This document shows, piece by piece, positions 1,344 through 35,560 of a DNA stretch of 36,562 nt. The stretch covers positions 1 through 36,562 of the forward strand of contig CAJOMM010000003.1 of NCBI GenBank assembly GCA_905235765.1, read 5' to 3'. Source of the stretch: an uncultured Clostridia bacterium (lineage in GTDB: Bacteria > Bacillota > Clostridia > Christensenellales > Borkfalkiaceae). The notes under the pieces were generated by a model. The model saw only the letters and a program-made list of their open reading frames with translations. It had not been told where the DNA came from and did no database searches. A program made the translations under genes and the position numbers. The stretch's first letter is position 1; each line of letters begins with the position of its first letter.

Positions 1344-1378
1344 ATAATTAATTTTAAGTTAATTTAAAACATCGGAAC

Positions 1379-1418
1379 AAGCCCCGAAGCGAAAAATTCG
1401 CTTCGGGGCTTGTATTTT
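1379..1418 (+). terminator. intrinsic terminator downstream of the membrane protein gene
   Basis: 13-bp perfect stem aagccccgaagcg (1379-1391) / cgcttcggggctt (1399-1411) with a 7-nt loop, followed by gtatttt. Confidence 0.75.
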
Positions 1419-1461
1419 AAAATTTTTTAAAAATATTTTCATTTTTGACGTCATAAGCCTA

Positions 1462-1489
1462 TTGTCAAAAATTTTCGTCGGGGTATAAT
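1462..1489 (+). promoter_or_regulatory. sigma-A/sigma-70-type promoter of the phage-like cassette
   Basis: TTGTCA (1462-1467), 16-nt spacer, TATAAT (1484-1489). The track ATG at 1488 lies inside the -10 box, so the real TerL start must be downstream. Confidence 0.55.
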
Positions 1490-1514
1490 GACGGCGAATT
1501 GCAAGGGGAAATAT

Positions 1515-2948
1515 ATGTTAAACACCGTGTCAAAAATACTTCGCATCGAAAAAGAAATTTCTTTAAGAGCGCCCGTGGATAAACTTAAAAATTATAATTC
1601 CGGAGAGGTAAAACACCTCAAACAACTGGCGTTCCACAAGTGCCAAAAGAAAAATCGCTGGGTGTTCGGCGGAAACCGTAGCGGCAAAACGGAGTGCGGT
1701 GCGGTGGAAACCGTATATATGGCAAGAGGTATTCACCCTTACAGGGAAAACCGCAGAGACGTTTTCGGTTGGGTCGTTTCACTTTCTTCGCAAGTTCAAA
1801 GAGACGTCGCGCAGGCGAAAATACTTTCTTACCTTAATCCGCGTTGGATAGACGATATAATTATGAGTTCAGGCAAAAAGGACAGTCCGTCGAGCGGCAT
1901 TATAGATCAGATAAAGATTAAAAACGTCTTCGGCGGCGTTTCCACCGTGGGGTTTAAATCGTGCGATCAGGGAAGAGAAAAATTTCAGGGCAGTTCTTTG
2001 GATTTCGTATGGTTCGACGAAGAACCTCCGAAAGATATATACGACGAGTGCCGTATGAGAGTCCTCGATAAAAACGGCGACATTTTCGGCACTATGACGC
2101 CCCTTAAAGGTCTTACTTTCGTTTACGACGATATCTATCTGAAAAGCGGCGGCGAATCGGATATTTGGTGCGAATTTATGGAGTGGGACGACAATCCCTT
2201 TCTCCCTAAGTCGGAGACGCAATCGCTTTCCGAAACGCTTCCGAAAGACGAGTTGGAATCTCGTAAATACGGCAGGTTTAAGTGCAAAGAAGGGTTTGTG
2301 TATACCGAATTCGACGAAAATATCCACGTCATAGATCCCTTTCGCGTTCCCAAGGAGTGGTACGATAAAATCTCCATCGACCCGGGGCTTAAAAATCCGC
2401 TTTCCGCACATTGGTACGCCGTGGATTACGACGGGACGGTTTACGTTATAGCGGAACATTTCGAGGCGGGGAAAACCGTAGATTATCACGCCGGAAAAAT
2501 AAAGGAAATATCCGAAAAATTAGGTTGGCAAAAAGACGCTGACGGAAGGTACAGGGCTTTGATAGATTCCGCCGCGAACCAAAAAACGCTGGCGGCGGTA
2601 AAAAGCGTTACGGAACTTTTTTACGAACAGGGTATTCTTGCCGATCCTAACGTTAATAAAGAGTTGTTTTCGGGAATTTCTACGGTCAAAAAATATCTTA
2701 AGCTCGTAAACGGAAAACCCGGACTATTCATATTCAGAAATTGCGTAAACCTTATAAGAGAACTCAAAAATTACAGGTGGGGAAAGGAAGATTCGCCCGT
2801 TAAATACGACGATCACGCTTTGGACGAACTCAGATACTACCTTATGACTAAACCGTTAAACTCTCCGCCCAAACCTCAGAAAACTCCCGTGCAATTGGAC
2901 AAAGAAAGGCTTTACAGGAAGATTCTAAATGAAAGGAGAAGATATTAA
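1515..2948 (+). CDS. terL: phage terminase large subunit (TerL)
   Basis: Walker A FGGNRSGKTECG, Walker B LDFVWFDEEPP, and a C-terminal nuclease-type motif YDDHALDELRYY. Start chosen at ATG 1515, 5 nt after AAGGGGA, because 1488 lies within the -10 box. Sits at the head of the morphogenesis operon. Confidence 0.9.
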   Translation: MLNTVSKILRIEKEISLRAPVDKLKNYNSGEVKHLKQLAFHKCQKKNRWVFGGNRSGKTECGAVETVYMARGIHPYRENRRDVFGWVVSLSSQVQRDVAQAKILSYLNPRWIDDIIMSSGKKDSPSSGIIDQIKIKNVFGGVSTVGFKSCDQGREKFQGSSLDFVWFDEEPPKDIYDECRMRVLDKNGDIFGTMTPLKGLTFVYDDIYLKSGGESDIWCEFMEWDDNPFLPKSETQSLSETLPKDELESRKYGRFKCKEGFVYTEFDENIHVIDPFRVPKEWYDKISIDPGLKNPLSAHWYAVDYDGTVYVIAEHFEAGKTVDYHAGKIKEISEKLGWQKDADGRYRALIDSAANQKTLAAVKSVTELFYEQGILADPNVNKELFSGISTVKKYLKLVNGKPGLFIFRNCVNLIRELKNYRWGKEDSPVKYDDHALDELRYYLMTKPLNSPPKPQKTPVQLDKERLYRKILNERRRY

Positions 2949-3297
2949 AGATTTATCGTTTTCGGAAAAACTCAGAGAAACGCTCGTTAAAAAGGCTTTG
3001 GGCTACGACGTTACGGAAGTGGTGGAAGAATATTCGGAAGAGGACGGAGAAATTAAACTCGTCAAAAAGAAAGTAACCGTAAAAAACGTTCCGCCCGACG
3101 TTACGGCGTTAAAAATACTTTTAGACGGCGGAAACGATGACGTTTCAGAGTATTCCGACGAGCGGCTGGAGTCGGAAAAAAACAGACTTTTAGCCGAGCT
3201 TTTAGTAGAAGAAAAAATAAATAAGGAGAAGAAAAATTGCAATCGAAAAAACAACGTAAAAAATTCACCGACGAACTCAAAGACAAAAAATTCATAG
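2929..3297 (+). CDS. small terminase-related protein lacking the N-terminal HTH
   Basis: The only coding frame filling the TerL-portal gap. The segment KKALGYDVTEVVEEYSEEDGEIKLVKKKVTVKNVPPDVTALKILLDG matches, from memory, the central and C-terminal signature of a Firmicute phage TerS family (..RALGYEYEE..K..K.VPPDTTAQIFWLKNR). The HTH that normally precedes it is absent. Overlaps the TerL stop by 20 nt and the portal start by 61 nt. Confidence 0.5.
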   Translation: MKGEDIKDLSFSEKLRETLVKKALGYDVTEVVEEYSEEDGEIKLVKKKVTVKNVPPDVTALKILLDGGNDDVSEYSDERLESEKNRLLAELLVEEKINKEKKNCNRKNNVKNSPTNSKTKNS

Positions 3298-5108
3298 AAG
3301 AGATAGTCGGCGAAGTGCAAGACGATTTTGAAAATCGCCGTAAAAACCGGCTCGCCTTAGAACGGCAATGGGAACTCAATATGAATTTTCTTGTGGGAAA
3401 ACAGTATTGCGACATAAATCGCCGTGGCGAGATAGTGAAAGTTGACGACGGGTATTTCTGGCAGAAACGCGACGTGTTCAACCACATCGCTCCGATAATA
3501 GAATCCAGGCTTGCCAAACTTTCAAAAATTTCGCCCGTATTAAACGTAAGGCCGAAAACGGACGACGACTCGGACGCGCGGGCGGCTACGCTTTCGCAAA
3601 AGCTTTTGTCAGCGGCGTTTGAAGACGAAAACGTTATGTCCGTAGTCAAAAAAACGACGGTTTGGTCGGAAACCTGCGGCACGGGCTTTTATAAAATCGT
3701 GTGGAACGAAAGGAGTGGCGCAATCATTGGGAATTTAGGTAAAGAACCTGTTTTCGAAGGGGACGTAAACGTTATTTCCGTTTCGCCGTTCGAAATATTC
3801 CCGGACAATTTGTTTACCGAAAATTTAGAGGACTGCGACAGCATTATTCACGCAAGAGCGGTAACCGCTTCTAAAGTCAGAGAAAAATACGGAGTTATCG
3901 TGGAAGGCGGAGAAGTGAGCGTTTTCGGGCTTAACGGAGACGGCGAAGACGTTTACGAAGGCGTAAAAGGAACTTTGGATAACGCAGTCGTCGTTATAGA
4001 AAAGTACGAACGCCCGACTCCGGAATTTCCGAACGGCAGACTTATCACCGTCGCGGACGGAAAACTTCTTTATTACGGGGAATTGCCGTATAATAACGCG
4101 CAATACGGAGAAAGAACTTACCCCTTCGTAAAACAGGAAGGTATTAAAGTTGCCGGCAATTTTTTCGGACTTTCGGTTATAGAAAGACTGATACCGGTAC
4201 AGAGGGCGTTCAACGCCGTCAAAAACCGTAAACAAGAATTTCTGAATAGGTTATGCGCCGGCGTTATGACTGTGGAAGACGGTTCGGTAGACGTAGATCA
4301 ACTTGCGGAAGAAGGGTTGTCCCCCGGGAAAATCCTCGTTTACAGGCAAGGGGCAAAAGCGCCGGAACTTATGTCCGGATTTTCCATGCCGGGCGAATTT
4401 TCCGGCGAAGAAGAAAGGCTTATAAACGAATTCGTAAGAATAAGCGGCGTGGCGGACGTTTCGTCCAGCGCGACGAACGCTAACCTTGCGAGCGGTTCCG
4501 CGCTCCAGATACTTATCGAACAGGACAACGAAAGACTTGTGGTGAACGCGGAAATCATCAGAAATTGTATTCTTAAAATTTCCAAGCAAATAATTCGCCT
4601 TTACGGACAGTTCACGGTCAACCTCCGCGCCGTTAAACTTGCGGATAAGGAGGGGAAAATCAGAACTTATTACATCGATAAAGCGGCGATGAATTCCGAC
4701 GACGTGTATATAGAGAACGAAAACGAATTGCTGTTTACCAACAGGCAAAAAAAAGATACGATTTTCGATCTTTATAAAAGCGGACTTTTAACCGACGAAG
4801 ACGGCAATATCCATCCGGCGGTCAAAGAACGCGTGCTTGCGCTTCTCGGTTATAAGGACCTTGACTATAAAAAGGGTATTTCCAGACTTCAGGAACAAAA
4901 GGCGCAAAGCGAAAACGAAGTCATAAGAAAACGCGGACTTAACGTCGAAGATATAGACGACGACAAGATTCATATAGACGAACACACGAGATATATTCTC
5001 GCCGAATACGACGAACTTAGTGAAGACGAAAAAGAACGGCTTTTCGGACACTTAAAAAGTCATAAAGAAAGGGCGGAATCTAAATTAAAGGAGAAAGAAA
5101 ATGAGTGA
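3237..5108 (+). CDS. phage portal protein
   Basis: 623 aa with a TTG start 8 nt after AAGGAG (3223-3228). Lies between terminase and scaffold/capsid genes, has portal-typical size, and ends in an acidic/basic helical C-terminus. Confidence 0.75.
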   Translation: MQSKKQRKKFTDELKDKKFIEEIVGEVQDDFENRRKNRLALERQWELNMNFLVGKQYCDINRRGEIVKVDDGYFWQKRDVFNHIAPIIESRLAKLSKISPVLNVRPKTDDDSDARAATLSQKLLSAAFEDENVMSVVKKTTVWSETCGTGFYKIVWNERSGAIIGNLGKEPVFEGDVNVISVSPFEIFPDNLFTENLEDCDSIIHARAVTASKVREKYGVIVEGGEVSVFGLNGDGEDVYEGVKGTLDNAVVVIEKYERPTPEFPNGRLITVADGKLLYYGELPYNNAQYGERTYPFVKQEGIKVAGNFFGLSVIERLIPVQRAFNAVKNRKQEFLNRLCAGVMTVEDGSVDVDQLAEEGLSPGKILVYRQGAKAPELMSGFSMPGEFSGEEERLINEFVRISGVADVSSSATNANLASGSALQILIEQDNERLVVNAEIIRNCILKISKQIIRLYGQFTVNLRAVKLADKEGKIRTYYIDKAAMNSDDVYIENENELLFTNRQKKDTIFDLYKSGLLTDEDGNIHPAVKERVLALLGYKDLDYKKGISRLQEQKAQSENEVIRKRGLNVEDIDDDKIHIDEHTRYILAEYDELSEDEKERLFGHLKSHKERAESKLKEKENE

Positions 5109-5527
5109 AAAAGAGATTAAACAAGAAAATAGCGGAAAGGAATTGCCGCAGGTCGAGGAGACTTTACCTGTTACGGAGGAAAAAGTCGAACTCGGAAAAT
5201 TCAAAGACGTAAACGCGCTCGCGAAAGCTTACGAATCTTTACAATCTGAATTTACCAAACGCTGTCAGAGAAGAATTGGAGCAACGCGTTTCGGAATTCG
5301 ACAAGACGAATATCCCGAACGACGTAAACGCGGAAGCGTCGGCAAATGCAGGTATATCCGAAGAGGAAAAAGAAGAAATCTTAAAAGGGTACCTAAAACA
5401 GGTGGTCGGCGCGAGATCGAGAGCGATTTTATTAGACGGCGAGGGGACGGGGCTTAAAACTCCGTCAAAAAAACCCAAAACCGTCGCAGAGGCAGGGATT
5501 CTTGCCAAAGAAATTTTATCTAAATAA
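5101..5527 (+). CDS. phage capsid scaffolding protein, interrupted by a +1 frame break near 5266-5278
   Basis: ORF 5101..5457 encodes ..KFKDVNALAKAYESLQSEFTKRCQR, then turns into Arg-rich nonsense. ORF 5276..5527 in the +1 frame continues ELEQRVSEFDK..EEKEEILKGYLKQV... The joined sequence EFTKRCQR/ELEQR matches a scaffold motif recalled from Firmicute phages. Lies between the portal and capsid genes. Confidence 0.6.
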
Positions 5528-5544
5528 TAAATAAAGGAGAAAAA

Positions 5545-6723
5545 ATGGCAGTAAATTTAACTAATGCGGATAACGCGCTCAAGACTTATTATCTCGACGC
5601 GGTTTCCGAACAACTCAACAATAACGCTAATCCGCTTTTGGCGCAGATTAAAAAGACGACCGACGACGTTTGGGGAAAAGAGGTGAAGAAGCTCGCAATA
5701 CACGGCATAAACGGAGGAATCGGCGCCGGAACCGAAGAAGGCGATCTTCCTCCGGCTACCGGCAATAACTATTCGCTTTTTTCGGCAACTCTCAAAAACC
5801 TTTACGGAACGATTGAGATATCCGACAAGGCGGTAAGAGCGTCGGAAAACAATTCGGGAGCGTTCGTCAGTCTTTTGAACGCCGAAATGGACGGGCTTAT
5901 AAAGGCTTCTTCGTTCAACCTTGGAAGGATGCTTTACGGCAACGGTCAGGGCGTTTTGGGAAAAGTAACGAATATTTCTAACGGAATAGTTGTGCTTACC
6001 ACCGTACAGAACGTTATGGAAGGCATGGTCGTCGATTTCAGGACTTCGGCAGGCGCGCTCATCGAAGGCGCTTCGGGTAGAAGGATTTTGGTAGTCGACA
6101 GAATAAGTAAGGCGATAAAGATCGACGGAACTTCGCTTGCGCTTGAAAGCGTGCCGATAAACAGCATAATGACCGTTCAAGGTTCCTACAACAACGAGAT
6201 CACCGGTTTAAGCGCGTTGTTCGACTCAACCACTCCTACTCTTTACGGACTTCAGAAGATAGATAACGCTTGGCTCGTTCCTTATAGCAAGTCGAACGTC
6301 GGGAGCATTTCCGAAGCGGCTATCCAGAAAGCGCTCGACAATATAGAAGAAGCAGGCGGCGCTCCGGCGAACTTCATAGTGTGTTCGTTCGGCGTACGCC
6401 GTGCGCTTATAAATCTTTTGTCGGCGAATAAGAGAAACGTGGACACTTTGGATCTTGCGGGAGGTTTCAAAGCGTTAAGCTACAACGGTATACCGGTAGT
6501 TGCAGACAGATTCTGTCCTTCGGGAACGATGTATATCTTGAATACCGAAGACTTTACGTTACATCAACTCTGCGATTGGCAATGGCTTACCGGCGACGAC
6601 GGAAAAGTGCTTAAACAGATACCCGGGAAACCCGTATATACCGCGACTTTGGTAAAATACGCCGAACTTTTGTGCGCGCGTCCTTACGGTCAAGGTATGC
6701 TTTCCGGTATAAGCGAAGCGTAG
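5545..6723 (+). CDS. phage major capsid protein (presumed HK97 fold; family not assignable by eye)
   Basis: 392 aa with a strong SD AAAGGAGA 7 nt upstream. Follows the scaffold gene directly. Gly/Asn/Thr-rich with no TM segment. A stem-loop follows the gene, as often seen after highly expressed capsid genes. Confidence 0.75.
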   Translation: MAVNLTNADNALKTYYLDAVSEQLNNNANPLLAQIKKTTDDVWGKEVKKLAIHGINGGIGAGTEEGDLPPATGNNYSLFSATLKNLYGTIEISDKAVRASENNSGAFVSLLNAEMDGLIKASSFNLGRMLYGNGQGVLGKVTNISNGIVVLTTVQNVMEGMVVDFRTSAGALIEGASGRRILVVDRISKAIKIDGTSLALESVPINSIMTVQGSYNNEITGLSALFDSTTPTLYGLQKIDNAWLVPYSKSNVGSISEAAIQKALDNIEEAGGAPANFIVCSFGVRRALINLLSANKRNVDTLDLAGGFKALSYNGIPVVADRFCPSGTMYILNTEDFTLHQLCDWQWLTGDDGKVLKQIPGKPVYTATLVKYAELLCARPYGQGMLSGISEA

Positions 6724-6730
6724 TATTTTT

Positions 6731-6758
6731 ATTCTCCGAGGGGAAACCCTCGGAGAAT
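6731..6758 (+). other. perfect stem-loop downstream of the capsid gene (no U-tract)
   Basis: attctccgaggg (6731-6742) pairs with ccctcggagaat (6747-6758) around a 4-nt loop (gaaa, 6743-6746). It is followed by aacattaaaagggg rather than a T-run. Confidence 0.6.
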
Positions 6759-6778
6759 AACATTAAAAGGGGAATAAA

Positions 6779-7336
6779 ATGAAAATAAAAGAAATAATAA
6801 ATAATTCCGCGCTGTATTTGGGGCTCGGCGACGTGCGTGAATATCTTGTCGCCCAAACCGATGCAAGCGAAGAAACGCTGAAAACCGTAGGCGTTTTGAC
6901 AGGGCTTTGCAATCTGGTGATAAGCGAACTCGCTTCCACTTATATTCCTATGACGGCGACCGAAGAGGTCAGCGCCGTAGCCGGCAAAATCTTTTTTGAA
7001 AATTTAAATCACGCGGCGATAAAAGTCGTTTCCGTCAAAGACAGGTCGGGAAACGAAATAAACTTCGAGGTGTTTCCTGAATATATAAAGTTAAAAGACG
7101 GTAGATTTACCGTGGAATACGAATATATTCCGCAAAATTACGGGCTGACGGACGATATAGGCTACGACGAAAAAGACGTGCCGCAGGCGGCTTTATCCTA
7201 CGGGCTTTGCGCCGAATATTGTATTACACAATGCCGTTTCGAGGAAGCCGTTTCGTGGAGAAAACGCTATATTTTTTCGCTGGAAAAATTTTTAGTCCCC
7301 AAAGCGCGTACGATGAAAGCGAGGATGTTCGTATGA
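6779..7336 (+). CDS. hypothetical virion protein; head-completion/adaptor candidate by position
   Basis: 185 aa with SD AAAAGGGGA before ATG 6779. Its stop overlaps the next start (ATGA at 7333-7336). No recognisable motif; assignment rests on position only. Confidence 0.4.
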   Translation: MKIKEIINNSALYLGLGDVREYLVAQTDASEETLKTVGVLTGLCNLVISELASTYIPMTATEEVSAVAGKIFFENLNHAAIKVVSVKDRSGNEINFEVFPEYIKLKDGRFTVEYEYIPQNYGLTDDIGYDEKDVPQAALSYGLCAEYCITQCRFEEAVSWRKRYIFSLEKFLVPKARTMKARMFV

Positions 7337-8541
7337 AATTAGCGGAGTTTGACTTAAAAAGCGCGAAAACTTACGAGTTCGAACCCGACCTTTCAGACGT
7401 AAAACAAAAAAGAAGATTTTATTACGAGCCCTCCGAATCGTTCAGTTTTCCGTCCGCCGCAAAATGCCTTTTCGAGAGAGACGGAGAGGTTTACCTTCTT
7501 GATACGGACGGGTTTTTGTATAAGCGGAGACCGGACGGAACCGGATTTAGAATGGTTTCTATGACGCAGTTCGGACTGACAATCAAATTTTTACCCATAG
7601 TCAAAGACGGAGAAAAAGCGGTTATAGTAGTTACACCTGATACCGCGGAAGTCGCGAGAAACGCTTCCGGAACGGAAATTTCCGTTCCGTACGGCATTTT
7701 GAGGTTTTACGCCGGACGGATTTTTTCCGCAAGCGGAAAAACGGTGTTTTACAGCGGTTTATACGATTTTACTTCCTTCGACCCGAATATCGGCGGCGGC
7801 GGATTTATCGAACTTGAAGAGGACGACGGCGACATAGTCGGCATAGAAGAGTTAAGCGGAAAACTTTATATTTTTTGTAAAAATTCGCTGTTTTCATTGA
7901 CGGCGTTCGGAGAGCCTACCGATTTTAAGTTGGAAAAATTGTCTTTTCCGAGGTTGACGCCCGACGAAAACAGCGTTTTGAAAGTAGATTCAAACGTCTA
8001 TTTTTTAAGCGGCAATATACTAAAAAAATTCGACGGCAAAACGGTTAAGACAGCGTCCTTATCGCTAGTTGGCAAAACCCTTACGGGAGAAGCGGAAAGT
8101 TTTTCCGGTATGTACGTAAGGACTATAACGGGGGAAGACGGAAATTATTCTTTCGTATACGAGGACGCTACCGGTGAAGAAGCGTTCGTAAAAATACCGA
8201 CAAACGCAGAGTGTAACGGCGCTATCACGCCTCAGAGAGCTTCGGGAAAAATTCTAAGATTGACGGGCGAGACGGTCGGGGTAGACCTGTATTCTGTAGA
8301 GGGAGCGGATTTCGGAACTTCGGCAATAAAAACCGTGCTCGCCGCCGACGTCGGCGCAACCGGAACCGCTACGCTTTTAATAAAAGGCGAGAGCGGAACG
8401 GTAAAAAGAAAGATAAAAAACGGCGGAAGTTACGTTAAATTCTGCGCGTCGGGAAGGTTTTTCGACCTATCGTTTACCGACTGTTCGGAAGATTTTTCAA
8501 TAAACAGACTCAAATTGATTTATTCAAAATGCGGAGGATAA
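7333..8541 (+). CDS. hypothetical virion protein with beta-propeller-like repeats (tail-hub candidate by position)
   Basis: Track ORF 7207..8541 overlaps the preceding gene. ATG 7333 is translationally coupled (ATGA) and gives 402 aa. Recurrent blade-like motifs: GEVYLLDTDGFLYKR, GRIFSASGKTVFYSG, GKLYIFCKNSLFSLT, SNVYFLSGNILKKFDG. Confidence 0.4.
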   Translation: MKLAEFDLKSAKTYEFEPDLSDVKQKRRFYYEPSESFSFPSAAKCLFERDGEVYLLDTDGFLYKRRPDGTGFRMVSMTQFGLTIKFLPIVKDGEKAVIVVTPDTAEVARNASGTEISVPYGILRFYAGRIFSASGKTVFYSGLYDFTSFDPNIGGGGFIELEEDDGDIVGIEELSGKLYIFCKNSLFSLTAFGEPTDFKLEKLSFPRLTPDENSVLKVDSNVYFLSGNILKKFDGKTVKTASLSLVGKTLTGEAESFSGMYVRTITGEDGNYSFVYEDATGEEAFVKIPTNAECNGAITPQRASGKILRLTGETVGVDLYSVEGADFGTSAIKTVLAADVGATGTATLLIKGESGTVKRKIKNGGSYVKFCASGRFFDLSFTDCSEDFSINRLKLIYSKCGG

Positions 8542-8542
8542 T

Positions 8543-9439
8543 ATGAATTTTACAACCCCAACGACTAAAGCGGAAATGCTTGAAACGCTTAAAGATATTT
8601 TTTATTATTACAGAATAAAAAGAGAAAGTTTCGAACAACTCGAGTTGAGCGAACTGTCTCTTAGCGACCTGAGTTACGTTTCGCCTACGGCTTTGCAGAC
8701 GAGAAATAAGGCTGTAACTTTGCTCGCTCCGGCGCAAAAGACGAGAGTTCTGAAATACAAGGAAGGTTTAACGACGGAAAAATCCGAACTTACGGAGAAA
8801 CTGTCGTCCGTTTCCGCGGAAACGCAGGTGCTTTTGGAAAAGATACGCGTAAGTTACGAAGAGAGCCTTAATACGGTTCAACAGGAAGCGGTTAAAAAAG
8901 GAGTGGCGCATAGCAGTATAGTTCTCGATAAAATAGCCGCGATTACGGGAGAAAAGAACCAAAAGATACTTGACGTAAACACGGAAAGTCAGCAAAAAAT
9001 TTCCGATATAAATGCGAAGATAGCGGCGATAGACGATCTTTTAGATGACGCAGACACCTATTATAGCGAGATAGAAGAGGCTGAGATACAGGCTAAAATC
9101 GTCGAGCTCAACGAAAAGGAAGAAGAAAAAAGAATAGAGGTATTCAAATACAACAACGGGCTTCACGAAAAGGAAGTAAAATATCTTAACAGTATAACAG
9201 TGAAAACGGCAAGTTTGCAACTGCAATATATGGATATAGTTTCCGATTTTTATACCAAAGACGAATTGGTGGAAATGGGTTATTACACGGACGCTATTAG
9301 CTGCGTAGTCTCTTACTACAACACGTTATCGGCGTATGCGGCTTACACGGATATAGTTGCGGACAGAACATTACCTATCTATCTCGACGATTATTATTCC
9401 AACGTAGTATATATGTACAGAACGAAAGCCGGACAATAA
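8543..9439 (+). CDS. hypothetical coiled-coil protein with a Tyr-rich C-terminal domain (needle/plug or decoration candidate)
   Basis: 298 aa, starting 1 nt after the previous stop. The central ~140 aa are E/K/Q/L/I-rich and heptad-like (..LTEKLSSVSAETQVLLEKIRVSYEESLNTVQQEAVKK..ISDINAKIAAIDDLLDD..). The C-terminus is YYTDAISCVVSYYNTLSAYAAYTD..YLDDYYSNVVYMYR. Confidence 0.4.
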   Translation: MNFTTPTTKAEMLETLKDIFYYYRIKRESFEQLELSELSLSDLSYVSPTALQTRNKAVTLLAPAQKTRVLKYKEGLTTEKSELTEKLSSVSAETQVLLEKIRVSYEESLNTVQQEAVKKGVAHSSIVLDKIAAITGEKNQKILDVNTESQQKISDINAKIAAIDDLLDDADTYYSEIEEAEIQAKIVELNEKEEEKRIEVFKYNNGLHEKEVKYLNSITVKTASLQLQYMDIVSDFYTKDELVEMGYYTDAISCVVSYYNTLSAYAAYTDIVADRTLPIYLDDYYSNVVYMYRTKAGQ

Positions 9440-9480
9440 AATTCGGGCGAAGACATTAACTGTCTTCGCCCGAATTTTGG
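9438..9480 (+). terminator. strong intrinsic terminator closing the phage-like operon
   Basis: 15-17 bp stem attcgggcgaagaca (9441-9455) / tgtcttcgcccgaat (9461-9475) with loop ttaac, running into tttt (9475-9478). Confidence 0.8.
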
Positions 9481-9490
9481 TTTATCCGCC

Positions 9491-9519
9491 TTTACAAAGC
9501 GCGTAAATTGTGTTAAAAT
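9491..9519 (+). promoter_or_regulatory. putative promoter of ispG
   Basis: TTTACA (9491-9496), 17-nt spacer, extended -10 TGtTAAAAT (9511-9519). Confidence 0.45.
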
Positions 9520-9535
9520 AATCTTACGGTGCGTT

Positions 9536-10573
9536 ATGAGTAAAAAAGTTAAGATAGGAAATTTGATTATAGGCGGAGGAGAACCGATAGCCGTACAAAG
9601 TATGGCGACTTTTAAGACGGAGTCTCCGGAAGCCGTAAAACAGGCGATAGCGCTTAAAAACGCAGGCTGCGATATTCTTAGGTTTTCGGTATTGGACGAA
9701 AACGACGCGGCGGCTTTTAAGAATATAAAAAAAGCCGTGGATATTCCGATCTGCGCGGATATTCATTTCGATTACAGGCTTGCGCTTCTGTCGATAAAGG
9801 CCGGCGCGGACAAAATTCGCATAAACCCCGGAAACGTCGGTCAGGAAGCGAACGTTCGGGCGATAGCGGATGCGGTAAAGTCCGCGGCAATTCCCGTAAG
9901 GGTCGGCTCCAACACCGGAAGTATAGATAAACAATTTCTCGAAAAATACGGTAAAAACGAAGTCTCCCTTGCGGAAAGCGCCTTAAAACAGGTGGCGCTT
10001 TTTGAAAAATTCGGCGTAAACGATATAGTTATATCGGTTAAAGCGTCGTCTCCGTCTCTCACGGTAAAAGCTTACGAATATATAGCGGCAAAAACCGATT
10101 ATCCGTTGCATATCGGGGTAACGGAAGCCGGTACCGAATATAACGGAATTATTAAAAACGCCGTGGCGATGGGCGCGCTTTTATTCAAGGGGATAGGCGA
10201 CACGTTAAGGGTAAGCCTTTCCGCCGATCCGCTTAAAGAGATAAAGGCGGCAAAATCCATATTATCCGCGACCGGGCTGAGAAACTACGGCGCGGAAGTC
10301 GTAGCTTGCCCGACGTGTGGGCGTTGCGAGTGGGATTGTATGAGCTTTGCCGAGAAAACGGAAAAATTCTTAGAGGGAGTAAATAAACCGTTAAAGGTGG
10401 CGGTTATGGGATGCGTGGTCAACGGGCCCGGAGAAGCCAAAGACGCAGATATAGGCATTGCCGGCGGAAGGGATGGATGCGTGATATTCTTAAAAGGGAA
10501 ATTACTCAAAAAAATAGATAAAAAGGACGCGGAAAAGGAGTTTTTTGCGGAATTACGAAAATGTATAAATTAA
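9536..10573 (+). CDS. ispG: 4-hydroxy-3-methylbut-2-en-1-yl diphosphate synthase (IspG/GcpE)
   Basis: 345 aa. IGNLIIGGGEPIAVQSM at the N-terminus, RINPGN, and the Fe-S cysteine cluster VACPTCGRC ... GCVVNGPGEA. Confidence 0.95.
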   Translation: MSKKVKIGNLIIGGGEPIAVQSMATFKTESPEAVKQAIALKNAGCDILRFSVLDENDAAAFKNIKKAVDIPICADIHFDYRLALLSIKAGADKIRINPGNVGQEANVRAIADAVKSAAIPVRVGSNTGSIDKQFLEKYGKNEVSLAESALKQVALFEKFGVNDIVISVKASSPSLTVKAYEYIAAKTDYPLHIGVTEAGTEYNGIIKNAVAMGALLFKGIGDTLRVSLSADPLKEIKAAKSILSATGLRNYGAEVVACPTCGRCEWDCMSFAEKTEKFLEGVNKPLKVAVMGCVVNGPGEAKDADIGIAGGRDGCVIFLKGKLLKKIDKKDAEKEFFAELRKCIN

Positions 10574-12093
10574 AGAGCAGCGCGGAGTTTCTTTCGGAAA
10601 TTAAAAATCTCTCGGAAACGCTTAAAGATATTAAAATCAGTTCTATAGAGGTCGACAGGGAAAAAAATTCCGTAGTATATAATTTTATTTGCGAAAAATA
10701 CGTTCCGGAGGATCTCCGCCAAAAGATAGCGGAGGTGGTTTCGGAAAATACGGCGCCGATTTTTTCCGAGGTTTCGGTCAACGTAAAAAAGATAGTTGCG
10801 GACGAGAAACTTATCGACGTGGAAATTTACAAATTCTTAAAGGAAAATTATCCGTCGATCGCCATTTTTTTGACCGAAAAAGACGTGTCGTGCGAATCCA
10901 AAGACGGGTTGGTAAAATATACGCTCAGATTATCTTCCGACGGAGCGGAATACGTCCGCAAAAACGGCGCGATGAAAAACCTGAACGAATATCTTTCCAA
11001 AAAATTCTGCGCGGAATTCGTCGGGGCGACCGACTTGAAGCCGGAAATTCTGTCGGTTAACCTTCTTTCGGACGACGTTTATCAAAGCCAGCTTAGGCGG
11101 ATAGAATACCGTACCATAAAAGTTTCGGGCGTGATGCCGATAGACGATGAGAATATGGGCGACGTCGCTATTTATATAGAGGATATAGAGGACGGAGAAA
11201 TAACCGTTTCGGGCACCATAACCGATATAGAAGAGCGCGAGACGAAGAACGGCAAACCTTTCTTTATCATAAGGATAGACGATACGACCGGCAGAACGGG
11301 CGGCGTGTATTTTTCCAAGAAGGCGACCTATCCTAAAATAAAAGAATTAAAGGTCGGGGACGATATTATAGCGCGTGGAAATTACGGAGATTATAACGGT
11401 AGAAAATCTCTTACGATAGATAAGATAAACCGCTGTGTTTTTCCTAAAGATTTCGTCAAAAAAACAAAGTATAAAAATCCCGTTCCCGCGGAATACCGTA
11501 TGGTATTTCCCGAAAAAGCGGAAAATATAAGCGTTAAAAGCGTGTTCGACGTCGAGGAAAAACTGCCGGAAGAATTAGTGAGTAAGGTTTACGTCGTTTT
11601 CGACCTTGAAACCACCGGAATAGAGCGCTCCGAAAACGGAATAACGGAAATAGGCGCGGTAAAGATCGTAAACGGAGAAATTGCCGAACAGTTTAACGTT
11701 CTCGTTAAACCCGAATATCCTATTTCCGAAGAGAACGCAAATCTTACCGGAATTACTCCCGAAATGGTTGCCGACTGTCCCAAGATAGAAGACGTTTTAC
11801 CGGATTTTATCAAGTTTACGGACGGCGCTATTCTCGTAGCGCACAACGCTTCTTTCGATATGGGGTACATAAAGAAATATGCGGCTGAGTCCGATTACGA
11901 GATAAAAAACGCCGTTATAGACACCTTGGACCTTTCGAGAAGGTATCTTCCGGAACTCAACAAACACGATCTCGGCACGGTTGCGGAAAGATTTAAAATA
12001 GTATTCCGTCACCACAGGGCGCTGTCCGACGCGTACGCTACGGCGGAAGCGTTTATAGAACTTATGAAAATAAAGTGGAAAAACGGCGAGTAG
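10561..12093 (+). CDS. PolC-related protein with N-terminal domain, OB fold and DnaQ-type 3'-5' exonuclease only (no PHP or polymerase domains)
   Basis: Exo I VVFDLETTGI, Exo II ILVAHNASFDMGYI, Exo III HHRALSDAYATAEAF. The OB segment EITVSGTITDIEERETKNGKPFFIIRIDDTTGRTGGVYFSKK..VGDDIIARGNYG resembles the PolC OB domain. 510 aa. Sits in the syntenic polC slot between ispG and rimP. Confidence 0.8.
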   Translation: MYKLKSSAEFLSEIKNLSETLKDIKISSIEVDREKNSVVYNFICEKYVPEDLRQKIAEVVSENTAPIFSEVSVNVKKIVADEKLIDVEIYKFLKENYPSIAIFLTEKDVSCESKDGLVKYTLRLSSDGAEYVRKNGAMKNLNEYLSKKFCAEFVGATDLKPEILSVNLLSDDVYQSQLRRIEYRTIKVSGVMPIDDENMGDVAIYIEDIEDGEITVSGTITDIEERETKNGKPFFIIRIDDTTGRTGGVYFSKKATYPKIKELKVGDDIIARGNYGDYNGRKSLTIDKINRCVFPKDFVKKTKYKNPVPAEYRMVFPEKAENISVKSVFDVEEKLPEELVSKVYVVFDLETTGIERSENGITEIGAVKIVNGEIAEQFNVLVKPEYPISEENANLTGITPEMVADCPKIEDVLPDFIKFTDGAILVAHNASFDMGYIKKYAAESDYEIKNAVIDTLDLSRRYLPELNKHDLGTVAERFKIVFRHHRALSDAYATAEAFIELMKIKWKNGE

Positions 12094-14458: not shown

Positions 14459-17067
14459 ATGGCAGATATGCATATAGACAACATCAAAAAAATTAACGAA
14501 ATGTTGAAAGACGACCTTTTAAATAAACTCGTTTTGCGTTTTAACGCGTCCGAAAAAAGCGTTAAAGAGTTTAAGGGCGTTCTTACCGCAAAGTACGAAG
14601 AGCTTTCTTCTATAAAAGAGACGGAGACGTTCGCGGAAGAACCTGTCGCCGAAGTCGTGGAAGAGGAAAGAACGGAAGAGGTTTTGCGTGAAAAACCTGA
14701 GGCTCCCGAAGTAAAGGAAGAGGTCTCGGAAAACAAGGACGAACAGATAGAAGATTCGCCCGAAACGCCTTCCGTAAATCCCGAAGAAAAAGCCGAAGAA
14801 CCGGCGCCGAAGCCTGAGCAAAAATCCGAACAAAAGCCCGAAGAAACTCCTGAAGAAGAGCAGGCTAAGAAACCTGAGCCCGTTGAAAAGCCTGCGGAAA
14901 CGATTAAAAACGATAAAAAGAGCGATACGGCAAAACCGATGCCGTCCTTTATCGTGCGCAGGGAATTCGTACCGAAAAACAACACGGATACAAGGGCGCA
15001 AAATTTCAAAACTTCGCAGTCGAAGCCGTATGTAAAAGGGGAAAAACCTGCGTTTACGCCCCGTCCGTCTGCAAAAAAACCGCAGAATACTTACGTTGCG
15101 CCGCCCATAGTTCCGACTTCCTCGGATAAGCGTTCTTTCGGCAAGAAGAACAAAGGCGTAGAAAAGAATTTTGAAGAAAAGCACGTTATAAATAAGCGCG
15201 CGCTTATAAAGAACAACGTCGATATAGACGATTTCGATGAAAATAAGACGGGTTACAGAAAGTTCCGTCCGGTCAAAAAGGCGAAGGAAGAACAGCCCGT
15301 AAACACGATGATCACGCAGTGGTTAATACCGAGATAATACCGCTTAAAGTGTTGAGCGAAAAAATCGGAATTACGACGGTAGAGATTACCAAACGCCTTT
15401 TTAAGGAAGGCATTATGAAAACGATAAACGATTCCGTGGACTTCGATACGGCGGCTTTTATAGCCGACGATTTAGGGGTAGAACTGGAATTGAAACTCGA
15501 TAAGACCGCGGAAGACGTTTTGTCAGCCGGATTCGAGGATGTTCTTGACGAAGAAAAAGATCTTGTGCGTCGTCCGCCGGTGGTTACCGTTATGGGACAC
15601 GTAGATCACGGAAAGACTTCTATACTCGACAAGATTCGTAAAACGAACGTTACCGCCGGTGAAGCCGGAGGAATAACTCAACATATCGGCGCGTATACCG
15701 TTACGGTAAACGGCAGCCCCATAACGTTTTTGGACACTCCGGGACACGCCGCATTTACGGCGATGAGGGCGAGAGGCGCGCAGGCTACCGATATAGCCGT
15801 TCTCGTCGTCGCTGCCGACGACGGAATAATGCCGCAGACGATAGAGGCGATAAGCCACGCCAAAGCGGCGGACGTTCCGATAATAGTCGCGGTAAACAAA
15901 ATCGATAAGCCGGAAGCCAATATCGAGAGGATCAAACAGCAATTGACCGACCACGGACTTCTTCCCGAAGAGTGGGGCGGAGACGTTATCGTTTGTCCAG
16001 TTTCCGCAAAGACGGGAGAAGGCATCAACGGACTTTTGGAGAGCATCAATCTTTTAGCCGAAATAAAGGACCTCAAAGCCAACCCCGACAGAAAAGCGAA
16101 AGGCGTCGTTATAGAGGCGAAACTCGACAACAGCAAAGGTCCTATCGCCACCGTGCTTATTCAGAACGGCACGTTGAAAGTGTCCGACAACGTTATCGTC
16201 GGAACGGTTACGGGTAAAATCCGCGCGATGACCGACGACAAAGGCAGAAGAGTCAATTCGGCAGGTCCGTCCGTCCCCGTTTCGATAATGGGATTGGACG
16301 AAGTTCCGAACGCAGGCGATATTCTTTACGCGGTAGAGCAGGATAAACTTATGAAACTCGTAGCCGAAGAGAGAAAGAATAAAGAGCGCGAAAACATGAT
16401 AAAATCCGCCTCGAAAGTTACGCTTGACGACGTATTCGACAGAATAGCCGAAGGCGAGATAAAAGGTCTTAACATTATAGTAAAAGCGGACGTGCAAGGT
16501 TCTGTCGAAGCGGTCAAACAATCGCTTGAAAAACTTTCCAACGACGAAGTACGCATAAACGTCATACATGCGCAGGCAGGCGCAATAAAAGAGTCGGATA
16601 TTATGCTTGCGGAATCTTCTAACGCAATAATAATAGGCTTTAACGTCCGTCCCGACAGCAACGCCAAGCAGATTGCCGAAAAGAGCAAGGTCGACATCAA
16701 ACTTTACAGGGTTATTTACGAAGCGATAGAGGACGTAGAGAAGGCGCTTAAAGGTATGCTTAAACCTAAATTCAGCGAAGTATATCTCGGAAAAGCCGAA
16801 GTCCGTGAAGTGTTTAAGATTTCCGGCGTAGGACAGGTCGCCGGCTCGTACGTTACCGACGGAAAGATTTTGCGCAGCGGAAAACTCCGTATTTACCGCG
16901 ACGACGTTATGATTTGCGAAGGCAACGTTTTGCAGTTAAAACGCTTTAAGGACGACGTAAAGGAAGTCGCGCAGGGGTATGAGTGCGGTATTTCCATCGA
17001 AAAATTCAACGATATAAAAATCGGCGATTATATAGAATGTTATCAAGTGGAAGAAGAGAAAAACTGA
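14459..17067 (+). CDS. infB: translation initiation factor IF-2, split into two ORFs by a -1 frame break within 15247-15337
   Basis: ORF 14459..15337 (292 aa) is an acidic, Pro/Lys-rich N-terminal region. ORF 15319..17067 (582 aa) holds the IF2_N-like segment ([27 protein letters not shown]), the G domain ([18 protein letters not shown]) and the C-terminal domains. There is no SD before GTG 15319. The frames overlap by 19 nt. Confidence 0.9.
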
Positions 17068-18416: not shown

Positions 18417-19256
18417 TGACGGGATTTATAAATATAGATAAACCGACGGGCGTTTCGTCGGCGCGCGCCGTTGCCGCCGTAAGACGTAAATTTTCCACAC
18501 CTTGCGGTCATATGGGCACTTTAGACCCGATGGCGACGGGGGTATTGCCCGTAGGAATAGGTAAAACTTCTCGGCTTTTCCCATACCTTTTAGACAAAAA
18601 AAAGGTTTACAAAGCCGTTTTTACTTTCGGGTATTCGACCGATACTTTAGACGCTACGGGAAAGACCGAAAGCGTTACTTCATATATTCCTACAGAAAAC
18701 GATATAAAATCCGTTCTCTCGGCAATTTCGTGGGAGAAATAGATCAGGTTCCCCCGAATTATTCTTCTAAATGCGTTGACGGGAAAAGAGGGTATCAACT
18801 CGCAAGACGAGGCGTTTTTTTTGAACTTCCGCCGAAAAAAGTGGTTATTGAAAGTATTTCTCTTAACGAAAGGCTTTCCCTTAACGAGTTTGCTTTTGAA
18901 ATTTCCTGTAAAGGCGGAACGTATATCCGTTCCCTTGCCAGGGATATAGCTAAAAGCGTCGGCAGCCTTGTATGTCTAAGTTGACGAGAGCGGAAAGCGG
19001 AAGGTTCAATTTGGGAAATTCGGTAGGGTTAGAAGAGTTCGAGGACTGTTCGGATCCCGAAAAATACGTTATTCCGGCGGACTTCGCGCTCGACTTTGAA
19101 AAGTTATTTCTCGAAGAAAAAGACGCGAAAAAAATTCTCGACGGTGTCTACGAAGACCTCGGGTTTAAGGACGGGACGTACAGGGTGTATAACGGAGATA
19201 AATTTTGGGGTGTTGGCGAATCTTCGGGCGGAAAACTCCGCATATACGTCAGATGA
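18416..19256 (+). CDS. truB: tRNA pseudouridine(55) synthase TruB, broken into three ORFs by two -1 frame breaks
   Basis: 18416..18742 encodes GFINIDKPTGVSS..CGHMGTLDPMATGVLPVGIGK..KVYKAVFTFGYSTDTLDATG. 18730..18984 encodes (F)VGEIDQVPPNYSSK..CKGGTYIRSLARDI. 18972..19256 encodes MSKLTRAESGRFNL plus a PUA-like C-terminus. Together they form a full-length TruB. Confidence 0.85.
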
Positions 19257-35414: not shown

Positions 35415-35419
35415 AAGAA

Positions 35420-35560
35420 AGTAAAAATTAAATAGCCCGAGACAGCAGGTGTATAATTTGGCTATGCCAAAACCAGCCGAGGCGGAAAAACAGAGAAAAC
35501 GATTATTTTATCGCGCCCTCGTTTCCGTTTCGGAAACGAGGGCTTTTTCAAATCAAAAAA
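35420..35560 (+). ncRNA. ribosomal protein L10 leader (autoregulatory attenuator) with terminator hairpin at 35515-35549
   Basis: A ~150-nt structured 5' UTR between a consensus promoter and rplJ. It ends in a 13-bp stem gccctcgtttccg / cggaaacgagggc plus ttttt. This position and architecture match the Firmicute L10 leader class. Confidence 0.6.

Follow-up and report, generated by a model that had tools for sequence, protein, structure and literature searches.

Organization of the locus

This report concerns a compact cluster of phage-type genes, hereafter the cassette, in DNA from an uncultured Clostridia bacterium of the order Christensenellales (assembly GCA_905235765.1, contig CAJOMM010000003.1); the window is the whole stretch analysed, 36,562 nucleotides in length. 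Positions 1450-9480 form a single plus-strand operon, in which the map of open reading frames (ORFs) and their translations place eight co-oriented genes between 1488 and 9439 (Table 1). In order, they encode a large terminase (TerL), a truncated small-terminase-like (TerS-like) protein, a portal, a scaffolding protein, a major capsid protein (MCP) and three further proteins of 185, 402 and 298 aa, the last of which is referred to as g298. A preliminary description of this DNA had recognized an eight-gene capsid and packaging operon between two terminators, whose junctions vary between a 61-nt overlap and a 55-nt gap, behind a near-consensus promoter and with nothing else phage-like in the window. 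All of this holds up in profile searches, in the folding of the two terminators and in the promoter match; the rest of the window is housekeeping.

The codon style of the cassette, which the same description had judged by eye to be that of its host, can now be given in numbers. Its relative synonymous codon usage (RSCU) correlates with that of the host at r 0.935, compared to 0.938+-0.016 between random halves of the housekeeping genes. GC content at third codon positions (GC3) is 0.493 in the cassette vs 0.501 in housekeeping genes, and NCG codons account for 9.1% vs 9.2%. The codon usage of the cassette is thus indistinguishable from that of the host, i.e., ameliorated.

Table 1. Features of the cassette and its borders, with pairwise ratios of nonsynonymous to synonymous substitution rates (dN/dS) between genomes
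Feature	Position	Strand	Properties and matches	dN/dS
Intrinsic terminator of the upstream gene, insulating the left side of the cassette	1377..1413	+	17-bp stem, -32.1 kcal/mol, z -7.9, then U-rich run	
Candidate regulator site GTCATAA, immediately 5' of the -35 hexamer	1450..1456	+	Position relative to -35 kept in at least 20 species	
Sigma-A-type promoter TTGTCA-16-TATAAT	1462..1489	+	11/12 consensus positions; top sigma-70-type match in first 12.5 kb	
Large terminase TerL, packaging ATPase and nuclease	1515..2948 (ORF opens 1488)	+	Terminase_6N 4.9e-11, phrog_2 4e-27	0.03-0.07, one close pair 0.17
Truncated small-terminase-like protein, 122 aa	2929..3297	+	Weak matches to small-terminase families	0.06-0.17
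Portal protein	3237..5108	+	P22_portal 6e-14, phrog_156 4e-29	0.03-0.10
Scaffolding protein, 143 aa when intact	5101..5527	+	Assigned from position and composition	0.2-0.45
Major capsid protein, HK97 fold, podovirus type	5545..6723	+	NCBIfam capsid_maj_Podo 1.7e-78 (264 bits), phrog_14242 1.9e-58, SU10_MCP	0.04-0.22
Stable hairpin in the MCP-adaptor spacer	6729..6760	+	14-bp stem, -25 kcal/mol, z -5.4	
Predicted head-to-tail adaptor, T7 gp11 / SU10 adaptor type, 185 aa	6779..7336	+	AlphaFold2 model, pLDDT 88.9, pTM 0.79; Foldseek	0.1-0.3
Predicted nozzle / tail-hub beta-propeller protein, P22 gp10 / T7 gp12 / SU10 nozzle type, 402 aa	7333..8541	+		0.08-0.39
DUF7934 protein g298, 298 aa, lineage-specific	8543..9439	+	Pfam DUF7934 5e-12	0.07-0.18; 0.07-0.26 counting pairs whose cassette dS is under about 2
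Intrinsic terminator closing the operon	9437..9479	+	19-bp stem, -29.7 kcal/mol, z -9.3, then U-run	
Promoter-like site for ispG, downstream of the operon terminator	9491-9519			
ispG (flank)				0.03-0.08
nusA (flank)				0.01-0.09

Packaging, capsid and neck proteins

The packaging enzyme is well conserved in its catalytic parts. Across 56 species, the Walker A, Walker B and C-motifs of TerL and its three nuclease Asp motifs show 96-100% conservation. The -10 box of the promoter overlaps ATG 1488, where the ORF opens, and the real start is therefore ATG 1515, which lies behind a GGGG ribosome-binding site and is the one conserved in relatives. The TerS-like protein that follows has a conserved core of ~95 aa, and 45 of 47 members of its family match the TerS family phrog_309 at profile positions ~196-243 of 319 only. 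From its length and this coverage, it appears to have kept a C-terminal TerS segment, with the N-terminal DNA-binding part absent. The scaffold has no family match in profile searches. Its 143 aa are about half the length of the scaffold-position proteins in the nearest phages (282-297 aa; L081:6557-7405 and L082:6508-7401 in our numbering of related loci); that a short scaffold might accompany a small capsid is speculation.

Downstream of the MCP, the preliminary description had proposed a P22-type order of adaptor, hub and coiled-coil needle. Structure searches now assign the first two as putative virion parts. A needle is no more than plausible for g298, which has a helical, charged and variable middle between conserved ends but no phage homologue. 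When the adaptor model was searched against the PDB with Foldseek, the top ~24 matches were all phage head-to-tail adaptors, with template modelling (TM) scores of 0.29-0.60, mostly 0.4-0.6. All but two or three of these come from short-tailed phages, including KHP30, Pa223, SU10, N4, DEV, VP1, crAss001 and T7 gp11, and the matches in BFVD include 'Tail tubular protein Gp11' and 'Head to tail adaptor'. A sequence-profile search of the PDB gave nothing usable for this family, and its alignment by hhalign to gp21 and gp20 of Arthrobacter phage Brad gave no signal; only structure prediction resolved the protein, and on the strength of the predicted fold the 185-aa protein is established as a head-to-tail adaptor.

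The 402-aa protein is well supported as a putative nozzle or tail hub by profile, hhalign and structural comparison. Its family profile matches the SU10 nozzle chain 7z47_G at E=3e-4, and hhalign aligns the family to the nozzle of phage Brad over 119 columns with a probability of 83%. The top 22 Foldseek matches of its model are all podovirus nozzle or hub proteins (E 6e-12 to 2e-6, TM 0.27-0.38), among them those of Pa223, VP1, Pan3, SU10, Pam1, P22 (gp10), T7 (gp12) and Sf6. It is the fastest-evolving gene of the cassette. The homologue sets collected for the family alignments were small (5, 16 and 13 sequences), which limited the quality of the nozzle alignment and model. A weak nozzle match on a 2.5-kb contig beside an SU10_adaptor-like gene (P0029) was set aside; it has no taxonomic link to Faecalibacterium.

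The last gene encodes an orphan. g298 combines a conserved N-terminus, a variable and highly charged middle with helical periodicity at residues 61-200, and a conserved Tyr-rich C-terminal domain. Its relatives form 268 clusters among 1.84 billion representatives, and the full-length members are almost all 292-309 aa long. It belongs to no PHROG family and has no tblastn match among 50,697 phage records; a sequence-profile search of the PDB returned nothing usable for its family, and no literature was found on DUF7934. A metagenome scan with a narrow g298 alignment recovered 11 close relatives only and did not reach other lineages. Given its position, it is plausible that g298 serves as a channel plug, a needle or another virion component.

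Transcription signals

The promoter of the cassette is part of a larger conserved layout. In at least 20 species, the genes are preceded by a T-rich tract, GTCATAA, N4, a TTGACA-like -35 hexamer, N17, a TAnAAT -10 hexamer, a leader, GGGGG and ATG, independent of which gene lies upstream. The loci with the GTCATAA box include L003, L004, L005, L008, L010, L030, L038, L042-L046, L051, L052, L057 and L061, and across species the box keeps a distance of 4-5 nt from the -35 hexamer. The composite motif has a single good occurrence in the whole window, which is the one at the cassette. This makes the box a candidate regulator-binding site. In the window, it takes the form of a near-palindrome, TTTTGACGTCATAA. 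A second group of loci is without this layout and has instead a conserved divergent gene pair upstream, one member of which is weakly similar to sigma-70 region 4.

Within the operon, the hairpin after the MCP gene stands out. It is GC-rich and begins right behind the MCP stop codon. Of 72 species, 69 have a comparable structure; most of the spacers inspected (from L001-L064) share a CCGAG/CTCGG core, and a T-rich run follows the stem on its 3' side in 13 of 49 scored spacers. The element is probably a leaky terminator or attenuator, or else stabilizes the mRNA; these features are consistent with leaky termination, by which capsid protein would be kept well in excess of the neck proteins. An Rfam search found no RNA family in the cassette or upstream of it.

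Conservation and selection

Relatives of the MCP were found in 397 species-representative genomes, and the 80 loci compared here are the best of these 397. They come from Christensenellaceae, Borkfalkia-type or unclassified Clostridia metagenome-assembled genomes, with MCP identities of 60-83%. By tblastn and ORF clustering, the order TerL, TerS-like, portal, scaffold, MCP, adaptor, nozzle, g298 is present in 80/80 loci. In ~50 of them, ispG, an exonuclease gene, rimP and nusA lie directly downstream, so that the position beside ispG is syntenic in dozens of species; the upstream neighbours fall into a few housekeeping arrangements.

dN/dS spans 0.03-0.45 across the cassette, indicative of purifying selection (Table 1). 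When the same pairs of genomes are compared, dS is about equal to that of the flanking ispG and nusA; only in the genes for MCP and scaffold is dS markedly below that of neighbouring genes, which suggests strong codon bias. Protein distances of the cassette follow those of housekeeping proteins (Mantel r=0.79; 0/2000 permutations as high), and the mean identity of TerL, 75%, compares with 71% for ispG and 76% for nusA. These comparisons indicate that the cassette is chromosomally fixed, vertically inherited and under purifying selection in the sampled Christensenellales. A cassette that is fixed, ameliorated, co-diverging and under purifying selection would exclude a decaying stump, a recent prophage or a mobile satellite.

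One observation might nevertheless seem to favour decay. In the window, the scaffold gene is split at 5272 by a 5-bp deletion into ORFs 5101-5457 and 5276-5527, as might be seen in a functionless prophage stump kept by chance beside essential genes. The deletion is, however, specific to the window: in two metagenome assemblies obtained independently from this species, whose identity to the window is otherwise 99.7-99.8% over 12.9 kb, TAAAG is present at 5272 and the 143-aa ORF is intact, and 73 of 73 internal scaffold orthologues are intact. Compared to three other assemblies, the window carries four further small indels, namely a 7-bp deletion at 15309, a 2-bp insertion at 18715, a 4-bp deletion at 18970 and a 6-bp deletion at 19244. 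The first divides infB into two ORFs and the other three divide truB into three, both genes being intact in the other assemblies (2-3 independent same-species assemblies per site, five in all). Because similar indels break these essential genes, the scaffold frameshift, like the other four, is almost certainly a sequence or assembly artefact and not decay; comparison with the independent assemblies rules out decay and programmed frameshifting alike. Among the 55-76 species counted per gene, seven of the eight families have no truncated members, and the nozzle is truncated in 4 of 72. dN/dS stays well below 1 at divergences where housekeeping proteins differ by ~30%. A decaying stump is therefore barely credible as an account of the locus.

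Surrounding genes and variant loci

The surroundings of the cassette belong to the host. The 10 kb left of TerL hold aroA, aroB, genes for prephenate dehydrogenase and DAHP synthase, mscS, guaA, two Wzz-like genes and two hypotheticals; integrase, repressor, replication, tail, fibre and lysis genes are all missing there. On the 3' side follow ispG, an OB-fold/RNase-T exonuclease gene, rimP, nusA and infB, and the last 20 kb of the window are made up of translation, nucleotide and transport housekeeping genes; in the 27 kb right of the cassette there is no integrase, replication, lysis, fibre or long-tail gene. The flanks of the 80 related loci carry genes such as gyrase/topoisomerase, MATE, valS and RNase J, and the conserved flanking gene families checked there include no integrase, excisionase, primase/replicase or repressor. 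Nor does the window, or the ~20 kb surrounding each relative, hold an operon of fibre, receptor-binding, holin and endolysin genes.

These surroundings bear on a second alternative, in which the cassette is a capsid-forming satellite or other helper-dependent element, akin to the capsid-forming phage-inducible chromosomal islands (cf-PICI), that makes its own head and takes tails and induction signals from a helper phage. A head-only module with its own terminase would suit such an element, and a scaffold of half the usual length could favour small capsids. Against it stand the lack of integrase, excisionase, primase/replicase and repressor, both within 10 kb in this species and among the flanking families checked, as well as the synteny beside ispG in ~50 species, the match between cassette and housekeeping distances and the equality of dS with the flanks. 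The podovirus-type adaptor and nozzle would moreover form a short tail of their own and not a docking site for the tail of a helper. A satellite is thus very improbable, and vertical co-divergence and intact ORFs contradict both this and the decaying stump, each of which the preliminary description had offered as a hypothesis.

Several related loci depart from the common plan. In a divergent clade (L047, L050, L062, L067, L068, L072, L075, L077, L078), the nozzle and g298 genes are separated by a single additional gene, whose beta-rich product of 260-400 aa has no match in Pfam; these loci also have longer scaffolds (190-290 aa) and a different downstream context without ispG. Many relatives (L006, L012, L014, L020, L024-L029, L032, L040, L050, L056, L060, L062, L072, L076, L080) carry a conserved trio of genes ~0.1-6 kb upstream of TerL that is absent from the window. 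Its members are a minus-strand gene for an ~850-aa secreted beta-propeller-like protein with a C-terminal transmembrane segment, a gene for an ~175-aa protein that aligns weakly (E=2e-7) to a sigma-70 region-4-like protein of an IMG/VR relative (L099:379-1059), and a gene for an ~245-aa membrane-anchored protein, divergent from TerL. The trio may be a linked regulator or accessory set. The sigma-like upstream gene (c16) is confined to a subset of relatives and has no counterpart among the upstream genes of the window, and was dropped as a candidate.

IMG/VR holds 16 relatives (L085-L100), which are mostly short host fragments, and virus-prediction pipelines thus appear to class a domesticated locus as viral. 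The most distant of them, with 52% MCP identity, has a sigma-like gene upstream and, after the nozzle, a gene for an 805-aa tail protein of phrog_5302. In one IMG/VR lineage (L093 6717-15290, and L100), YpsA/SLOG-family genes and a type I restriction-modification system interrupt the cassette right after the MCP, and neither adaptor nor nozzle was detected in the available DNA.

Two features of the window lie apart from the cassette. The exonuclease gene at 10561-12093 overlaps ispG by 13 nt, and its position after ispG is kept in ~45 species. The 510-aa product falls short of a full PolC; it combines an OB-fold (tRNA_anti-codon) with an exonuclease domain of the RNase T/DnaQ-like type. A ribosomal protein L10 leader (RF00557, 49.5 bits) at 35418-35558, upstream of rplJ, is the sole Rfam match in the window.

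A domesticated head-neck module as the probable explanation

Taken together, these observations are best explained by domestication. The cassette is probably the domesticated podovirus head-neck module of a Christensenellales particle resembling a gene transfer agent (GTA), where the making of particles and their DNA content are what we infer from the genes. The domesticated podovirus-like or GTA-like packaging device put forward in the preliminary description as the first of three hypotheses is accordingly the best fit. The refuting conditions named there also came out on the side of domestication: integrase, tail and lysis genes are missing from the 10 kb left of the cassette, the locus is syntenic in dozens of species, and selection on it is purifying. 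As part of this explanation, the cassette would be the vertically inherited remnant of a T7/P22/SU10-like phage, cut down to the assembly of a capsid, its filling with DNA and the sealing of the portal.

In the proposed mechanism, the sigma-A-type promoter and the adjacent GTCATAA box would give rise to a single transcript. Scaffold, MCP and portal would assemble a procapsid, into which TerL would pump DNA with headful cutting. Since the TerS-like partner appears to lack a DNA-recognition domain, packaging would not be sequence-specific, and random host DNA would be taken. The hairpin after the MCP gene would lower the expression of the three distal genes, and adaptor, nozzle and probably g298 would close the portal channel and retain the DNA. 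Lysis and receptor-binding fibres would be supplied from other loci, as they are in the GTA of Faecalibacterium prausnitzii (FpGTA), with its operon II, and in RcGTA; transfer of genes between cells would then follow.

Not all of the evidence points this way. The cassette is known here from its genes. No lysis, fibre or receptor-binding genes lie in the flanks inspected (~46 kb of one genome and ~20 kb per relative). For a function that is costly and probably lethal, a promoter so near the housekeeping-type consensus would be unusual, unless a repressor holds it down. g298 is without an assigned fold, and the nozzle model is of low confidence (pLDDT 54, TM at most 0.38). The likeness to FpGTA is one of architecture, the MCP of FpGTA being annotated to the N4-gp56 family and that of the cassette to capsid_maj_Podo. 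All of these weigh against a GTA-like particle.

Some of the same points could be read in favour of a domesticated capsid whose role is something other than transfer, such as a phage decoy or other interference, bacteriocin-like or altruistic lysis that releases extracellular DNA, or capsids that contain DNA and do not deliver it, as in PBSX. Fibre, receptor-binding and lysis genes are missing in and near the cassette across 80 species, the gene set is what a sealed, DNA-filled head would need and nothing beyond, and the authors of the FpGTA study also leave delivery open (PMC12946183). On the other hand, strong purifying selection acts on the ATPase and nuclease motifs of TerL and on its TerS-like partner, which makes DNA packaging the activity that is selected. 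Other GTAs hold their fibre and lysis genes at distant loci, and more distant IMG/VR relatives have the phrog_5302 tail-protein gene after the nozzle. On balance, a role other than transfer is unlikely, albeit by no means negligible. A bolder form of this view, which we hold to be quite unlikely, is that nothing is missing from the cassette: capsid, packaging motor and three head-completion proteins would make up a sealed head filled with DNA, found across the order and lacking both fibres and lysis genes. This would be a new class of domesticated viriform that does not inject DNA in the manner of a phage or a classical GTA. Its selected role could be the export or storage of DNA, uptake of whole particles or interference with phages, and the lineage-specific DUF7934 protein would be its new functional part.

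Significance

Few gut taxa are as heritable, or as closely associated with health, as the Christensenellaceae, and gene flow among them is poorly understood. GTA-like packaging of their DNA in human faecal virus-like particles has been reported without a gene cluster (PMC12946183; Nat Commun 2026), and the cassette is a concrete candidate for the genes that this 2026 study left unnamed. The value of the finding lies in this candidacy, in the conservation of the cassette over a large part of an order and in its minimal content. If confirmed, it would be the second GTA-like system of podovirus type, possibly an independent domestication, and would demonstrate that much of a bacterial order can retain a head-neck module of minimal content. 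A further lesson would be the warning that prophage predictors mislabel such loci as viral, 16 relatives being already in IMG/VR. The GTCATAA promoter box, the hairpin after the MCP gene and the orphan DUF7934 protein offer points of entry for experiments.

Comparison with known systems

Among cultured phages, the nearest to the cassette are Jasminevirus (the Arthrobacter phages Brad, Adat and Jasmine), Microbacterium phage Shocker and assorted podoviruses, with identities of only 24-30%; over 50,697 phage records, identity to the cassette proteins is under 30%. Jasminevirus and Shocker have the same order of terminase, small ORFs, portal, scaffold-position gene and MCP; they share the MCP and portal families at 24-29% identity and have a homologous nozzle. 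The adaptor and nozzle folds predicted for the cassette are also those of SU10/P22/T7-type podoviruses. In contrast to the cassette, which has none of these, phages of the Jasminevirus/Shocker type carry internal core or ejection proteins, fibres, lysins, a holin and replication genes, and the scaffold (143 vs ~280-300 aa), portal and nozzle of the cassette are all shorter than those of Jasminevirus, Shocker and the podoviruses. The locus differs from a prophage in having head and neck genes only, conservation across species, host codon usage and identities below 30% to known phages, and from an encapsulin in conserving a portal and a catalytically intact TerL.

The cf-PICI resemble the cassette in that they supply capsid, portal and packaging proteins for themselves and carry neither tail nor lysis genes. 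As mobile islands, however, they also have an integrase, regulators and a module for replication; the cassette locus has none of these and co-diverges with its host.

The established GTAs and related particles, namely the RcGTA type of Alphaproteobacteria, BaGTA, VSH-1, Dd1, VTA and PBSX, are similarly phage-derived structural clusters that are inherited vertically, are under purifying selection and lack replication and integration genes. A TerS without a DNA-recognition domain and accessory genes at other loci are features of RcGTA-type GTAs that would be expected of the cassette as well. These systems are long-tailed, of siphovirus-like or myovirus-like build, and have their origin in phage lineages unrelated to it, while the cassette is of podovirus type and belongs to one order of Clostridia. 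For RcGTA and other GTAs, host regulators and DNA packaging have been documented; for the cassette, both are putative.

The closest counterpart is FpGTA. Its operon I encodes TerS, TerL, portal, a scaffold-position gene, MCP, a small ORF, adaptor, a P22-gp10-like nozzle, an ORF and a 'TolA' protein, the last of which is a terminal protein abundant in the particles; its TerS is without a DNA-binding domain (PMC12946183). Operon II lies 125 kb away and carries fibres, a receptor-binding protein, holin and endolysin, and the particles measure ~40 nm, look tail-less and contain ~8.5-9 kb of host DNA (PMC12946183). In the same study, 3 of 25 GTA-like packaging events came from the Christensenellaceae genera HGM11616 and QANA01, with long-read peaks of virus-like particles at roughly 4-7 kb (PMC12946183). 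These fragments are shorter than the 8-kb cassette. The literature searched yielded no further paper that ties Christensenellaceae to such a locus.

Several differences separate the two systems. FpGTA has a second operon for fibres and lysis and its particles have been observed, whereas the inspected flanks of the cassette hold no such operon and the system is known from its genes. Operon I has 10 genes in 10.5 kb, compared to 8 genes in 8 kb for the cassette. In the cassette, TerL comes first and the TerS-like gene second, and the position of TerS differs in FpGTA. The hosts belong to different orders, Oscillospirales for FpGTA and Christensenellales for the cassette. From the different NCBIfam names of the two MCPs, it is possible that the cassette represents an independent domestication. 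The parallel between the two is nevertheless extensive: both are chromosomal operons of gut Clostridia with a podovirus-type neck, near-ubiquity in the host clade and no replication or integration genes, and operon I can be set beside the cassette gene by gene, matched by order and by the annotation in the proteomics table.

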